From contig JBBQGI010000001.1 of the NCBI GenBank assembly GCA_038322875.1, positions 20,372-84,371 of the forward strand: 64,000 bases of DNA, written 5' to 3'. Positions 1 through 30,648 of the stretch are shown here, piece after piece (position 1 is the stretch's first letter; the number at the start of each line of letters is the position of its first letter). The stretch is from Candidatus Limnocylindria bacterium (lineage in GTDB: Bacteria; Chloroflexota; Limnocylindria; QHBO01). Below the pieces are notes generated by a model. That model did no database searches and had not been told where the DNA came from. It saw nothing but the letters and a program-made list of their open reading frames with translations. Both the position numbers and the translations under genes were made by a program.

Positions 1-85
1 ATCGCCTGGGTGCGCGCGGCGAGCCGGGAATGGCACGAGGTCGAGCGCGGCCCGCACGACGACGCGCCGGGACATTGAGCTGTCG

Positions 86-18067: not shown

Positions 18068-19156
18068 TCAGCTTTGGATCGGCGGCCCATACCAGACGCT
18101 GGCCGCGATGATGACGTACAGGCCCAGCAGCGCCAGCCCCTCGAGCCAGGTGCTCTCGCCGTCGAAGACGATCAGGGCCGCCAGGATGGCGGACAGGGCC
18201 ACCGCCCCCAGGAGCAGCGGGCTCAACACCAGCGTCAGCCCGCCGCCGATGACCAGCGAGATGAGAACCAGCACCGGCGTCAGGGCGATGGCGACCTGCA
18301 GGCTGCTGTTCAGGATCAAGCTGGCCGCCAGGTCCGCCTTGTTCCGAATCGCCATCTGCACGCCGACCACGTTCTCGACCGCGTTGCCGGCGATGGCGAC
18401 CACGACCAGTCCGACGAACGCCTCGGAGATGCGCAGGCTGGCCATGGTGGGCCGCAGCGCCTCGACGAAGAGATCCGAGGTCAGTGCAGCGCCCCCTGCG
18501 CCGAGGAACAGCACTGCCAGCGTGAGCCCCAACGGCCAGACCGATTCGGGCGCCGTCTCCTCGACCCCTGCGCTGGCACCCACGCCGCCCCCGATCGAGA
18601 AGGGGATCGAGGCCGCGAAGATGACCAGCAGCACGATCGAGACGATCACGCTCAGGTCGGTGGCGTGCCCCGCGTCGGGGGCGCCGGGGGCGGTGGCCAA
18701 GGTGGGGATCGCCAGGGCGGCAACGGCCAGCACCAGGAGGGTGGCCATGCTCCGCACCGCCGGCGCGTGGAACTGCTGGGTGCCGTGCTTCAGGCCGCCG
18801 AGGAAGAAGGCGAGCCCAAGGACGAGCAGCGTATTAGCCAGGATCGAGCCGATGAGGGCGGTCTGGACGACGACCACCAGGCCCGCCTGCAGGGCGAAGA
18901 TCGAGATGAAGAGCTCCGGCAGGTTGCCGAGCGCCGACTGCAGGATGCCGGTCGTCCGCGGCCCGAACCGATGTCCGAGCTGCTCCGTCCCACGGCCGAT
19001 CAGCACCGCCAGCCCGGCGAGGGCGGCCGCCGCCACCACGAAGACCACGGTCTGGCTGGCCCCGATGGCGTTGAGCGCAAAGGCAAGTGCCGCGGTACCG
19101 AGCGACAGGACCGCGGTGAGGGTCGTCGTGCGCCCCAGCCGAGCCAGCATCTTCAT
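18068..19156 (-). CDS. Ca2+/cation antiporter (CaCA family, ChaA/CAX-like)
   Basis: two alpha-repeat regions (GNxxE) and 11 TM topology; GGAGGAGG RBS before ATG at 19156. Confidence 0.85.
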   Translation of the reverse strand: MKMLARLGRTTTLTAVLSLGTAALAFALNAIGASQTVVFVVAAAALAGLAVLIGRGTEQLGHRFGPRTTGILQSALGNLPELFISIFALQAGLVVVVQTALIGSILANTLLVLGLAFFLGGLKHGTQQFHAPAVRSMATLLVLAVAALAIPTLATAPGAPDAGHATDLSVIVSIVLLVIFAASIPFSIGGGVGASAGVEETAPESVWPLGLTLAVLFLGAGGAALTSDLFVEALRPTMASLRISEAFVGLVVVAIAGNAVENVVGVQMAIRNKADLAASLILNSSLQVAIALTPVLVLISLVIGGGLTLVLSPLLLGAVALSAILAALIVFDGESTWLEGLALLGLYVIIAASVWYGPPIQS

Positions 19157-19301
19157 CCTCCTCCGGCAGCCCTCCGTCCTGCGGCGCTCGCAGCGGGCGA
19201 AGTGTAACGCCCAGGTTGGTCCTGTCCGCCGCTTGTGGATTGACACGGCGCCCTCGCGGGCGGCATGGTTGCCGGCCAGAACGTGGGAGATTGGGGTCGC
19301 C

Positions 19302-19997
19302 GTGCCGGACCAGGAATTCGTGACCCAGAGCCTGCGACGCTGCGCCCTCTTCGCGCATGTCGAGCCGGCTGGACTGAGCGTGCTGGCGAACGCCATGGTG
19401 CGGCGTCGCTTTCGGCGCAACGAGGTGATCTTCCACCAGGGAGATCCGGGCGACTCGCTGCACGTCGTGGCCACCGGTGCGGTGAAGATCGTGCTGCCGT
19501 CGCCGGGCGGTGACGAGGCGATCATCGCCACGCTGCAACCGGGCGACTTCTTCGGCGAGCTGGCCCTGCTCGATGGTGCGCCGCACTCGGCCACGGCGAC
19601 GGCCGTCGAACCGGTCGAGACGCTCAGTCTCGCCCGAGCCCCGTTCCATCACCTCCTCGACGAGGACCGGGGGCTGCGCATTGCGCTGCTCTCCGGCCTG
19701 GCCGCCGAGCTGCGCCGCCTCACCGGCCACGTGGAGGAGCTGCACTTCCTGGATCTTGCTGGGCGCCTCGCGATGCGCCTGGTGCGGCTCGCGCGTGAGC
19801 GGGACCCCGGCGTCGAGCACGAGGTGCGCCTCGATTGGCCGTTCACACAGACCGATCTGGCGGCTATGATCGGCGGCACACGGCAGAGCGTGAACAAGCT
19901 GCTCAGCCGACTGGTCGAGGATGGGCTTCTCGTCATCGAGCACGACACGCTGGTGATCCGCGACGTGCAGGCGCTGGCGGAACGGGCAGAGCGGTGA
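19302..19997 (+). CDS. Crp/Fnr family transcriptional regulator
   Basis: N-terminal cNMP-binding fold (FGELALLDG...A.A), C-terminal HTH (TRQSVNKLLSRLVEDGLL). Confidence 0.85.
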   Translation: MPDQEFVTQSLRRCALFAHVEPAGLSVLANAMVRRRFRRNEVIFHQGDPGDSLHVVATGAVKIVLPSPGGDEAIIATLQPGDFFGELALLDGAPHSATATAVEPVETLSLARAPFHHLLDEDRGLRIALLSGLAAELRRLTGHVEELHFLDLAGRLAMRLVRLARERDPGVEHEVRLDWPFTQTDLAAMIGGTRQSVNKLLSRLVEDGLLVIEHDTLVIRDVQALAERAER

Positions 19998-20004
19998 GGC
20001 TCGA

Positions 20005-20020
20005 TGTCGGCAAATCGACA
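20005..20020. promoter_or_regulatory. CRP-like palindromic box TGTCGgcaaatCGACA
   Basis: perfect 5-N6-5 inverted repeat with the same spacing as the TGTGA-N6-TCACA CRP site, 8 nt after the Crp-family gene stop and ~110 nt upstream of next operon. Confidence 0.4.
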
Positions 20021-20132
20021 GAAAAAGGGTCGCGGACGGGATTCTCGTTTCTGAAGGGCGGACATATCGTTCGGATCAACGACGCTCACAACCTAGATGA
20101 GCGTGGACAACCAGATCGAGAGGTTCAAGGTC

Positions 20133-20408
20133 ATGTCTGAGCAGGATCCCAAGGACACCGAGGGACATAAGAAGACCCCATCGGCTTCCGGAGACGACAC
20201 CGAGGGCCATAAGCACACCCCGTGGTCGGCGACCGACGAGGACACCGAGGGTCACAAGCACACCCCATCGGCGTCGGATGACGACACCGAGGGCCACAAG
20301 CACACCCCATCGGCGAGCGACGACGACACCGAGGGCCACAAGCACACCCCGTGGTCGGCCAGCGACGACGACGACACCGAGGGCCACAAGCACCAGCCGG
20401 ACGCGTAA
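20133..20408 (+). CDS. small acidic His-rich tandem-repeat protein (six TEGHK[HK]TP repeats)
   Basis: ORF with GAGAGG SD-like sequence; six near-identical 14-15-aa repeats; stop abuts start of GAF gene (TAAATG). Confidence 0.6.
   Translation: MSEQDPKDTEGHKKTPSASGDDTEGHKHTPWSATDEDTEGHKHTPSASDDDTEGHKHTPSASDDDTEGHKHTPWSASDDDDTEGHKHQPDA
20155..20400 (+). repeat. in-frame ~42-45 bp tandem repeats (gacaccgagggccacaagcacacccc...)
   Basis: six direct repeats visible at nucleotide level. Confidence 0.85.
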
Positions 20409-21185
20409 ATGGTCGGGGATGACCACCTGACCGCCGCGCTCACTGCCCTCAGGGCGGTGGCGCGGCGGTCTTCTGTTGCGCGCAGGCTGCAGGGCGACGC
20501 CGAGGAGCGGCTCCTGCAATCGATCGTGGATGCCACGGCCAGCCTCTTCGATGCCGAGGCCTCTTCGATCGCCCTCTTCGAGAGCGATCCGGATCGGCTC
20601 GAATTTCGCGTTGCCGCCGGAGCCCAGGGCGCCGGCGCGGTCGGCCTGCAGGTCAAGCCGACCGAGGGGATCGCCGGGTTCGTCTTCTCGACGGGTCAGG
20701 CGCTGGCGCTGACCGATGTCGCCTCGGACCCTCGCTTCGACATCCAGGCCGCGAAGAAGACCGGGTACGTCCCGCGCTCGATTGCGGCGGTTCCGCTCCT
20801 GGACGACGACGGATCGGTCGGCGTCCTCCAGGTCCTCGACAAGCGTGGATCGCCGAGCTTCTCGCTGCGCGACATGGAGCTGCTGGCGATCTTCGCCCGG
20901 CAGGCAACGACGGCGATCACCGCGACCCGCGTGCAGCGCGACACCGGCCGAATGCTCGGCGAGGTGCTCCGCCAGATCGCGGACCAGTCATTGACCGACG
21001 ATCAGGTCGAAGCCCTGGTCTCAGACGCGACGCGCGACCTCGACGACAGGCCGGAGTCGCCCTTCTGGGAGCTCGTCAACCACGTTGCCGTGCTGCGCAG
21101 CCTGGGCGAGCGCGACCTCGCGCTGGTGAGCGAGATCCTCGCAGTGGTGGCGCGGCACGCGCAGCGATCCCGTCGACGAGCGTGA
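20409..21185 (+). CDS. GAF domain protein
   Basis: single GAF fold (~150 aa) plus ~90-aa helical tail; no output domain. Confidence 0.8.
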   Translation: MVGDDHLTAALTALRAVARRSSVARRLQGDAEERLLQSIVDATASLFDAEASSIALFESDPDRLEFRVAAGAQGAGAVGLQVKPTEGIAGFVFSTGQALALTDVASDPRFDIQAAKKTGYVPRSIAAVPLLDDDGSVGVLQVLDKRGSPSFSLRDMELLAIFARQATTAITATRVQRDTGRMLGEVLRQIADQSLTDDQVEALVSDATRDLDDRPESPFWELVNHVAVLRSLGERDLALVSEILAVVARHAQRSRRRA

Positions 21186-22060
21186 GTGGCCTCGACCTTC
21201 CGGCATGGACCGAGCCGTTCACCAATGTCCCTGGTCTCGCGCGGCGGATGCGACTGCGAGGCATCTCGCGTGACTGGGCATGGGGCGGGGCGACCGGCAA
21301 GGGGGTCCGCGTCGGCATCATCGACAGCGGACTGGAGACCGATCATCCCCGCCTCGCGGGCAGGGTGGTGCAGAGCGTCGCCGCCGAGCTGACGGAGGGG
21401 GATCCTGATCCGTACATCGTGCCCGACACGAGTGGCGACCTCTACGGTCACGCCACCGCCTGCGGCGGCATCATCCTGGGACTTGCGCCCGAGGTCGAGC
21501 TGATCTCGATCCGGGTCCTCGGCGCGGACCTGCGGGGCAAGGGCACGGCCTTTGCGGCCGGCCTCGAGTGGGCGATCGAGCAGGGCATCAACGTGCTCAA
21601 CCTGAGCCTTTCGTCGAAGAGCGAGGCGCTCTTCCCCGTCTTCCACGACCTGGTCGACCGCGCCTACTTCCGCGGCGTCAACCTCGTGAGCGCGGCGAAC
21701 AACGTGCCCGCGGCGAGCTATCCGTCGCTCTTCTCATCGGTCTTCTCCGTGGCGGCTCACGGCGAGCCCGACCCGTGGCGCCTCTACTACAACCCCGCCC
21801 CGCCGGTCGAGTTCGGAGCATGGGGCGTGGACGTGCCGATCGCCTGGAAGGACGGCGGCTCGACCGTGGCGACCGGCAACAGCTTCGCCGCACCGCATGT
21901 CGCGGGCATGGTGGCGCTGATCCTGTCGAAGCACCCGGGCCTGACGCCGTTCGAGGTGAAGGCGGTCCTCGCCGCGATCGCCAACAACCCCCGGCGGGTG
22001 AATGCCCCGCAGAAGGAGGACGCTAGCTCGCTGCGTGCTCCCGGCGGTGGAGGCGCTTGA
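21182..22060 (+). CDS. S8 family subtilisin-like serine peptidase, no signal peptide (cytoplasmic)
   Basis: catalytic triad motifs GIIDSG (Asp), HATACGG (His), GNSFAAPHVAG (Ser); GTGA overlap with GAF gene. Confidence 0.9.
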   Translation: MSGLDLPAWTEPFTNVPGLARRMRLRGISRDWAWGGATGKGVRVGIIDSGLETDHPRLAGRVVQSVAAELTEGDPDPYIVPDTSGDLYGHATACGGIILGLAPEVELISIRVLGADLRGKGTAFAAGLEWAIEQGINVLNLSLSSKSEALFPVFHDLVDRAYFRGVNLVSAANNVPAASYPSLFSSVFSVAAHGEPDPWRLYYNPAPPVEFGAWGVDVPIAWKDGGSTVATGNSFAAPHVAGMVALILSKHPGLTPFEVKAVLAAIANNPRRVNAPQKEDASSLRAPGGGGA

Positions 22061-22442
22061 TCAGCGCCTTCATGATCGGCACGGCCATTTGCGGATGCTC
22101 CTTGAGGAGCGCGGTGAACTCCCAGGAGACGAAGAGGATGCACTCCGTCTCCTCGATCGCCTTGACGCTCGCCGTACGCGGATGTTCCTCGATCAGCGCC
22201 AGCTCGCCGAAGAAATCTCCGGGGTAGAGCTCGCTCGGGGTCCGATCCTGGGCGCCGTCCTTCTCCGCTTCGGCCCGACCGCGCAGGATCACGTACAGGG
22301 CCGACGCCGGATCGTCCTGCCGAATGATCCATTCTCCGGCCGCATAGGTGCGCCGCACGCCCTGCTCTGCCAGTCGCTTGATGATCCTGTCATCAAGGTC
22401 ATGCAGCAGCGGGGCCGCAGCCAGGGTCTGCTCAAGGTCCAC
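22023..22442 (-). CDS. standalone cyclic nucleotide-binding (CNB) domain protein
   Basis: FGELALIEEHPRTASVKA signature; GTG start placed downstream of tRNA; convergent with S8 gene (38-nt overlap). Confidence 0.75.
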   Translation of the reverse strand: MDLEQTLAAAPLLHDLDDRIIKRLAEQGVRRTYAAGEWIIRQDDPASALYVILRGRAEAEKDGAQDRTPSELYPGDFFGELALIEEHPRTASVKAIEETECILFVSWEFTALLKEHPQMAVPIMKALIKRLHRREHAAS

Positions 22443-22465: not shown

Positions 22466-22541
22466 TGGAGCGGGAGACGAGGTTCGAACTCGCGACATTC
22501 AGCTTGGAAGGCTGACGCTCTGCCAACTGAGCTACTCCCGC
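22466..22541 (-). tRNA. tRNA-Gly (anticodon TCC)
   Basis: reverse complement GCGGGAGTAGCTCAGTTGGCAGAGCGTCAGCCTTCCAAGCTGAATGTCGCGAGTTCGAACCTCGTCTCCCGCTCCA folds as cloverleaf with TCC anticodon, encoded CCA. Confidence 0.9.
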
Positions 22542-29756: not shown

Positions 29757-30648
29757 TGCGGAAGAGGTCCTCGAGCCGATGTCGCCGCTGCTCCAGGCGG
29801 GTGAGGGCGAGGCCCATGTCGTCGATCACGTCACGCACGATGTCGTACGGGCGCTCGTCGGGGCAGTCGACCAGCACGCTGTGGCCGTCGACGGTCGCCA
29901 CCAGGCCGGCGGCGATGAGGCGCTCCGCGAGGGCATCGGCGCCATCCTCGACCTCCACCCCGAGCGAGCCGGTGCGCTCCACGAAGCTTGAGATCGGCGC
30001 CGATTGCAGGAGCTTCCCTGCGTCGATCGCCAGGAGGTACGTGCAGACCCGCTCGATCTCGCCGAGCAGGTGGCTCGCCACCACCGTCGCGATACCGAAC
30101 TCGGTCCCGGTGCGCTGCACCAGGTCGAGCATCTCGTCGCGGCCGGCGGGATCGAGGCCATTGGTCGGCTCGTCGAGGAGGAGCAGCTTCGGGTCGTGGA
30201 CGATCGCCTGCGCCAGCTTGACCCGCTGCTTCATGCCGGTCGAGTACCCGCCGATCGGCCGATAGCGCTCCTCGTACAGGCCGACGTGGCGCAGCACCTC
30301 GGCGGTCCGCTCGCGAGATGCGGCGGCGGGAAGCCCCGCCATGCGACCCATGTGGCTCACGAACTCCGTGGCCGAGATGTCGGACGGGAGACAGTCGTGC
30401 TCGGGCAGGTACCCGACGAACTGGCGGATCTCCGGCCCGCGCGTCGCGACGTCCATCTCCATCACGGTGGCGCTGCCACTCGTCGCCGGCAGCAGGCCGA
30501 GCAGGATCTTCAGCAGGGTGCTCTTGCCTGCTCCATTGGCCCCCACCAGGCCGATGATCCCCGGTTCTACGGCGAGCGTCAGCGCGTCCAGGGCGACGAC
30601 CGACGATCCATAGCGCCTGGTCAGCGCGTTGGTGGCGATGAGGGGCAT
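29728..30648 (-). CDS. ABC transporter ATP-binding protein
   Basis: Walker A GANGAGKST, signature YSTGMKQR, Walker B LLLDEP. Confidence 0.85.
   Translation of the reverse strand: MPLIATNALTRRYGSSVVALDALTLAVEPGIIGLVGANGAGKSTLLKILLGLLPATSGSATVMEMDVATRGPEIRQFVGYLPEHDCLPSDISATEFVSHMGRMAGLPAAASRERTAEVLRHVGLYEERYRPIGGYSTGMKQRVKLAQAIVHDPKLLLLDEPTNGLDPAGRDEMLDLVQRTGTEFGIATVVASHLLGEIERVCTYLLAIDAGKLLQSAPISSFVERTGSLGVEVEDGADALAERLIAAGLVATVDGHSVLVDCPDERPYDIVRDVIDDMGLALTRLEQRRHRLEDLFRSEGRTDDAA

Follow-up and report, generated by a model that had tools for sequence, protein, structure and literature searches.

The window, which is the whole 64 kb stretch of DNA analysed here, contains one gene for a protein with a Crp-type HTH domain. 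This gene is located at 19302..19997 on the plus strand, starts with GTG at 19302 and encodes a 231-residue regulator of the Crp/Fnr family, with a cNMP-binding domain (PF00027, 2.2e-27) and a Crp-type HTH (PF13545, 5.1e-16). The initial annotation had described a perfect 5-N6-5 palindrome directly 3' of it. An exact pattern search of the window located this element (TGTCGgcaaatCGACA, half-sites TGTCG and CGACA around GCAAAT) at 20005-20020, beginning 7 nt past the TGA stop codon at 19995-19997; in its context the sequence reads gagcggTGAggctcgaTGTCGgcaaatCGACAgaaaaagggtcg. The palindrome TGTCGGCAAATCGACA (20005..20020, centre 20012.5, not assigned to a strand) is the proposed primary operator. 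With its 5-bp inverted half-sites, 6-bp gap and outer TGT/ACA, it has the form of a Crp/Fnr operator. The region around it is AT-richer, as had been stated, with a G+C content of 0.53 over 20000-20149 compared to 0.67-0.74 in the flanking genes (~70%). However, the spacer had been given as ~100 nt and measures 135 nt up to the ATG of the next gene at 20133.

Three genes follow on the plus strand. The first (20133..20408), preceded by a ribosome-binding site GAGAGG at 20118-20123, encodes a 91-residue protein in which KHTP(S/W)(A/S).. peptides lie between six DTEGH motifs, and its DNA is a tandem repeat with a period of 42 and 5.5 copies. A start at ATG 20097 was considered and rejected: it is not conserved in close relatives, and the orthologues begin with MS(D/E)Q(N)DP, which corresponds to ATG 20133. 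The second gene (20409..21185) encodes a GAF-domain protein (PF01590, 3.3e-18), and its ATG abuts the TAA of the repeat gene. The third (21182..22060) encodes an S8 subtilase (PF00082, 5.1e-27) and overlaps the GAF stop by 4 nt. All loci that extend far enough keep the GAF-S8 pair in this order.

Within the window, the palindromy of this single sequence is not beyond chance. The exact pattern TGTCG-N6-CGACA is expected 0.17 times per window, and at least one copy is present in 15 of 100 shuffles. With up to two mismatches, 28 copies are observed against 48 expected, and perfect 5-N6-5 palindromes of any sequence number 156. Searches confined to the window thus give no sign of enrichment, and the argument is a comparative one, built on the relatives. 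The more general pattern TGT-N10-ACA occurs only three times in the 64 kb, and by the weight matrix described below the palindrome (score 22.1) is the sole credible site in the window. A possible second copy at 30378 (TGTCGGACGGGAGACA, score 13.2) is located inside a minus-strand coding region for an ABC-ATPase and was rejected.

We examined 80 orthologous loci, obtained by scanning species-representative genomes, nearly all of them Limnocylindria/Chloroflexota MAGs. The orthologues share 63-90% identity with the regulator. Its close homologues come from metagenomes, with 73-98% identity among the 120 matches listed, and some are labelled Candidatus Limnocylindria or Chloroflexota. In a search for TGT-N10-ACA up to 200 nt past the orthologue stop, the site was present in 69 of the 80 loci, 1-91 nt past the stop, at protein identities of 65-90% and between diverging flanks. 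The consensus over the 69 sites is TGTC(G/a)-N6-(C/t)GACA. Columns outside the search pattern are near-invariant, including C4 and G13 (69/69), C/T12 (62/69), and G5 and A9 (59/69 each). The palindrome had been likened to CRP/GlxR sites in geometry, with altered half-sites; all 69 orthologous sites have the N6 spacing. We also observed that the spacer is asymmetric, with A9 (position 20013) present in 59 of 69 loci and T8 in only 16. When the 10 closest sequences are aligned, the palindrome, a GTC downstream of it, parts of the -35/-10 region, and the ribosome-binding site GAGGTT with the TG of the start codon are invariant.

The conserved features downstream of the palindrome resemble a promoter. 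A third half-site, GGTCG at 20028..20032 on the plus strand (consensus TGTCG), is located at a fixed +24..+28 from the palindrome start. G25, T26 and C27 are conserved in 68 of 69 loci and T24 in 53, and the GTC is invariant in close relatives, although the half-site itself is degenerate in the window. We considered a full second palindrome at this position and rejected it: over the 69 loci the partner half at +35..39 is not above background, leaving a lone half-site. A weak -35-like hexamer, TTCTCG, follows at 20042..20047 on the plus strand, where the consensus has TT at +38/+39 (T38 in 67/69, T39 in 47/69). A -10-like hexamer, TATCGT, is found at 20065..20070 on the same strand, 17 nt past the -35-like hexamer, and TAnnnT is present at +61 (±1) in 65 of 69 loci. 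T71, A72, G75 and T76 are invariant in the alignment of the closest relatives. From this layout, transcription is predicted to start near 20077, which would place the palindrome centre at ~-64.5 and the lone half-site at ~-49 to -45. The site thus keeps a fixed distance to the TT (+38) and TAnnnT (+61) in 65 of 69 loci, as in Crp/Fnr operators, the start point itself being a prediction.

Two further observations concern this region. Just past the predicted -10, a block TTCGGATCAACGACGCTCAC (20070-20089) is conserved in the clade with at least 84% identity, with CAAC invariant. The 5' UTR would begin with this block, which has no Rfam match. In addition, a sigma-70-like 10/12 match, TTCACA-17-TATGAT, in the HTH-coding part of crp (19842-19870, plus strand) was rejected as a by-product of conserved F-T and A-M-I codons. 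The synonymous bases that improve its fit to the consensus are peculiar to this genome, with TTCACA found in 4 of 38 sequences and TATGAT in 1 of 38.

The location of the palindrome so close to the crp stop, where it could form a 5-bp stem with a 6-nt loop, raises the question of whether it acts as RNA, either as a terminator or as a stabilizing hairpin at the 3' end of the crp transcript. The comparison with relatives makes this extremely improbable. The site lies anywhere from 1 to 91 nt past the stop but at a fixed distance from the promoter, and is thus tied to the downstream promoter and not to the crp 3' end. The G+C-rich stem, U-run and stable fold of an intrinsic terminator were not found at the site: its folding energy equals that of shuffles (z = 0.02), a T-run is present in 1 of 69 loci, and no terminator is predicted here. 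The bases of the stem are kept as such instead of covarying, its fifth pair does not match in 15 of 69 loci, and the stem never extends. The element has no Rfam match, and copies of it are also found in front of genes, at a large distance from any 3' end.

These additional occurrences were found with a symmetrized weight matrix built from the 69 sites. Scanning 579 kb of loci at a score cut-off of at least 14 yielded 108 sites, compared to 1-5 in ten Markov-1 simulations (~3 expected). The 39 sites outside the training set constitute independent evidence. Together with the conservation in 69 of 80 loci, this number of sites leaves a functionless chance palindrome with a negligible probability, despite the 15% of shuffles that contain the exact pattern and the many perfect palindromes in the window. 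The motif search proposed in the initial annotation gave, over these loci, enrichment at promoters in the relatives, with 39 extra sites against ~3 expected, and this one site in the 64 kb of the window. A crude sorting of the sites into coding and non-coding was discarded because the open reading frames were over-extended and 10 main sites were called 'coding'.

Sixteen of the 39 extra sites are located 67-142 nt upstream of the start of the regulator's own gene, beside a TTGACG -35 at variable distance. They cover all six loci that lack the repeat gene and have crp followed by GAF-S8 (L011, L013, L016, L017, L020 and L024). The site therefore always heads the transcription unit with GAF-S8, and in many cases it stands in front of crp as well. 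In the window clade there is no site upstream of crp, and the argument for self-regulation rests on the relatives. The divergent intergenic region 19157-19301, between a Na/Ca-exchanger-family gene (18068-19156, minus strand) and crp, contains TTGACA at 19240-19245, which resembles the TTGACG -35 of the relatives. No palindrome (no matrix match of at least 9) was found in it, unlike in the 16 relatives.

Further extra sites are found in front of genes for small proteins that have one D[TV]EGH motif and a basic tail (L029, L034, L036, L052, L056 and L060) and for larger D[TV]EGH proteins (L009, L073). Others stand before a displaced repeat gene (L029) and before genes for MFS-type transporters or small membrane proteins. 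The single-motif proteins are 60-80 residues long, and in them the basic tail, which is helical (..ARxxDxERxARExxRxKExR..), comes after the D[TV]EGH motif; P0144 joins both types in one protein. Several of the extra sites share the layout palindrome-N7-TGTCG-N9-TTGACG-N17. The hexamer at the -35 position reads TTGACG or TTGACC in these other promoters, and this shared layout identifies T38/T39 of the main sites as the start of the -35. Sites were also observed 3' of the S8 gene in divergent regions (L035, L039, L054, L063 and L074). These regions have small membrane proteins (MYQHP..) on one side and, on the other, a M(T/S)(D/E)R..FY(L/I)TT gene with a conserved TACCAT -10, which by eye is methionyl-tRNA-synthetase-like. 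A scan of metagenomes by the DNA pattern TGTCG-N6-CGACA-N7-TGTCG alone gave, among the matches listed, mostly chance hits with unrelated G+C contents. Among these matches, D[TV]EGH genes are found downstream in L109, L140, L147 and L159, and an RQSVNK regulator upstream in L186.

The recognition residues of the regulator fit the half-site. The closest solved structures are Mycobacterium tuberculosis Crp (3i54, 8e-34) and GlxR. The recognition helix of the window protein is G-T-R-Q-S-V-N-K, in which RQSVNK takes the place of RETVNK in M. tuberculosis Crp. Among 81 sequences (the 80 loci and the window gene), 80 contain RQSVN[KR], and thus Gln at the position of CRP Glu181, and one has no match to the pattern. 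Specificity in Escherichia coli CRP is set by Arg180, Glu181 and Arg185, and when this protein is given Gln181/Thr185 after the model of CooA, it activates from an operator in which TGTGA has been replaced by TGTCG (PMC2677863). The CooA site consensus is TGTCGGCnnGCCGACA (PMC545781). Cmr, which lacks the Glu, binds TGTCA-N6-(C/T)GACA (PMC4705688). This match between recognition residues and half-site bases supports the adjacent protein as the binder, with Gln181 paired with TGTCG as in the published cases (PMC2677863, PMC545781). A dimer of the regulator would bind the palindrome, one TGTCG half-site being read by each recognition helix (R-Q-S-V-N-K), and the C found at the fourth base where CRP sites have G would follow from the Gln that replaces Glu181.

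The site could instead be a genuine Crp/Fnr operator bound by a regulator encoded elsewhere, such as a paralogue with a Gln- or Pro-type helix, its adjacency to crp being incidental. Crp/Fnr paralogues are common, CooA and Cmr belong to unrelated subfamilies and share this half-site class, and our inspection covered ~8.7 kb of each related genome and the 64 kb of the window. However, site and gene are linked in 69 of 80 loci, a site precedes the regulator gene itself in 16 more, nearly every orthologue carries the RQSVN[KR] helix that fits TGTCG, and no other HTH protein is found in the conserved module, where crp is the only Crp-type HTH gene. We therefore consider a distant regulator unlikely. 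The initial suggestion that the palindrome may be the operator of the adjacent regulator has gained support, at the level of sequence, from its conservation, its fixed distance to the promoter, the recurrence of the motif and the Gln-containing helix. Taken together, the palindrome is probably a conserved operator of the adjacent Crp/Fnr regulator, with activation of the repeat-peptide/GAF/S8 operon as its most likely role.

From ~-64.5, the regulator would most likely activate the operon of the D[TV]EGH repeat peptide, GAF protein and S8 subtilase, and a second dimer might be recruited to the lone half-site, centred at ~-41.5. An upstream site at a fixed distance combined with a poor -35 is the usual signature of activator dependence. 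At the repeat-gene promoters, the palindrome is wholly upstream of the -35 at an invariant distance, the -35 is poor (TTCnnn), and in this promoter class no site covers the -10 or the start. These features argue against the adjacent regulator binding here to repress, or only to modulate expression by bending, by looping to the third half-site or by blocking read-through from crp. Such a role nevertheless has points in its favour. The sites upstream of crp in the relatives range from abutting a near-consensus TTGACG -35 to 27 nt upstream of it, and a variable distance to a good -35 is typical of negative autoregulation. A good -35 is also found at other promoters of the set. Canonical E. coli class I positions are -61.5 and -71.5, and the centre at -64.5 matches neither. 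We regard repression or modulation at the repeat-gene promoter as rather improbable, though it carries real weight, and activation remains the preferred reading. The asymmetric spacer and the lone third half-site are unexplained by a simple symmetric dimer site.

The effector of the regulator is presumably a cyclic nucleotide. The pocket motif FGE...(R/H)S(A/T)TA is kept, and reads FGELALLDGAPHSATA in the window protein. In CRP proteins, an Arg in this motif (R82 in E. coli, R89 in M. tuberculosis) binds the cyclic phosphate. This position is Arg in ~60 orthologues and His in ~20 others and in the window protein, which lacks the conserved phosphate-binding Arg of cAMP-dependent CRP proper. The substitution suggests that the ligand or its affinity may have changed in the window clade, and it makes the effector, and even ligand dependence, uncertain. 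The locus is rich in cyclic-nucleotide sensor modules. A stand-alone cNMP-binding-domain protein without an HTH is encoded convergently past the S8 gene (22023-22430, minus strand); its listed reading frame runs into a tRNA-Gly(TCC) gene (22466-22541, minus strand), and the real start is further in. Many relatives have one or two more cNMP-only genes beside crp.

The D[TV]EGH gene family is the more novel part of the locus, the operator being an ordinary kind of element. In most site-bearing loci, the first open reading frame past the site keeps DD[TV]EGH and has quite different peptides between the motifs. In the repeat-protein orthologues (L001-L079), DD[TV]EGH is invariant and the 4-25 residues between motifs are hypervariable across genomes, with KHTPSAS in the window and AKQRATP, RAKLPGAA, GFGRKI, HTSGV repeats and IAK repeats elsewhere. 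The leader MDxYRRRPPMEGFSRPGSLGGEA is common to some subgroups. Neither Pfam nor NCBIfam has a model for the family, its 73 database relatives are all annotated as 'hypothetical protein', and a literature search on D[TV]EGH proteins found nothing relevant. By its sequence, the repeat protein looks like a multi-core peptide precursor. For the S8 protein, the best NCBIfam models are mycosin and the leader peptidase QhpE, both below cut-off, and no signal peptide is obvious by eye.

We tentatively propose, as a possibility that we hold with considerable doubt, that operator and regulator are the master switch of an undescribed peptide system largely confined to Candidatus Limnocylindria, in which the S8 and GAF proteins process the precursors. 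A cyclic-nucleotide-type sensor would switch on genes whose products all carry DD[TV]EGH. These would include multi-copy precursors, in which copies of the motif are separated by short peptides, hypervariable from one genome to the next. The co-transcribed S8 protein, with no obvious signal peptide, and the GAF protein would process them into signalling or RiPP-like peptides. As a speculative alternative, a cut before Glu would produce an N-terminal X-X-His end of the Cu/Ni-binding type. The recurrence of the site links otherwise anonymous genes, those for the D[TV]EGH repeat peptides, the GAF protein and the S8 protease, and makes the function of the gene set approachable. No paper naming both Limnocylindria and Crp was found in the literature searched, and the locus provides a testable regulator-operator pair for an abundant, uncultured class of soil and freshwater Chloroflexota.

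The half-site class is already known from CooA and Cmr. CooA is a CO-sensing Crp/Fnr regulator of Rhodospirillum rubrum and Desulfovibrio (PMC545781). Its operators share with the present site the 5-N6-5 geometry, the TGTCG/CGACA half-sites and the following G-C (TGTCGGC..), and the regulator here also has Arg-Gln at the positions of CRP Arg180-Glu181. However, it is a cNMP-domain protein nearest to M. tuberculosis Crp and GlxR, and CooA is absent among its best 60 solved relatives. No coo/CODH genes are found nearby, the targets being the repeat peptide, GAF and S8 genes. The site also differs from CooA operators in its asymmetric spacer (A9 conserved, T8 not), in the extra third half-site at a fixed position, and in its predicted location at ~-64.5, not overlapping the -35. 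Membership in a CooA regulon was rejected on the basis of the cNMP-pocket motif, the nearest structures and the non-coo targets.

Cmr (Rv1675c) of M. tuberculosis recognizes a near-identical motif class in SELEX and footprinting, TGTCA-N6-(C/T)GACA (PMC4705688). It is a cAMP-associated Crp-family protein from a lineage of the high-G+C Gram-positive type, and it separates its own sites from Crp sites of the TGTGA type. Unlike Cmr, the regulator here has Gln instead of Pro at the Glu181 position, the fifth base of its site is G (59/69) and not A, and the regulon content is unrelated. A Cmr orthologue needs Pro at this position (PMC4705688), and the Gln in 80 of 81 sequences led us to reject this assignment.

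M. tuberculosis Crp (Rv3676) and Corynebacterium glutamicum GlxR are the closest solved homologues (E ~1e-33 over the full length), with an equal domain order. Their recognition helices are identical to that of the regulator here except for E to Q and T to S. They differ in reading the half-site TGTGA (TGTGA-N6-TCACA) and not TGTCG, and the window clade has His in place of the phosphate Arg. At the level of promoter architecture, the site is similar to E. coli CRP class I and class III (tandem-site) promoters, in which an activator site is located upstream of a poor -35, with a possible weaker second site at ~-41.5. The 23-bp centre-to-centre distance and the -64.5 position are non-canonical for these classes, and the second site here is only a half-site.

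The pairing of helix and half-site is matched by the engineered E. coli CRP7 (Gln181/Thr185) and its operator Om7, in which Gln181 permits activation from a TGTCG-type operator in the CRP scaffold (PMC2677863). That pair is synthetic and has Thr at position 185, whereas the regulators described here have Lys or Arg. They provide the residue-to-base code of Crp/Fnr proteins with a natural Arg-Gln-Lys case.
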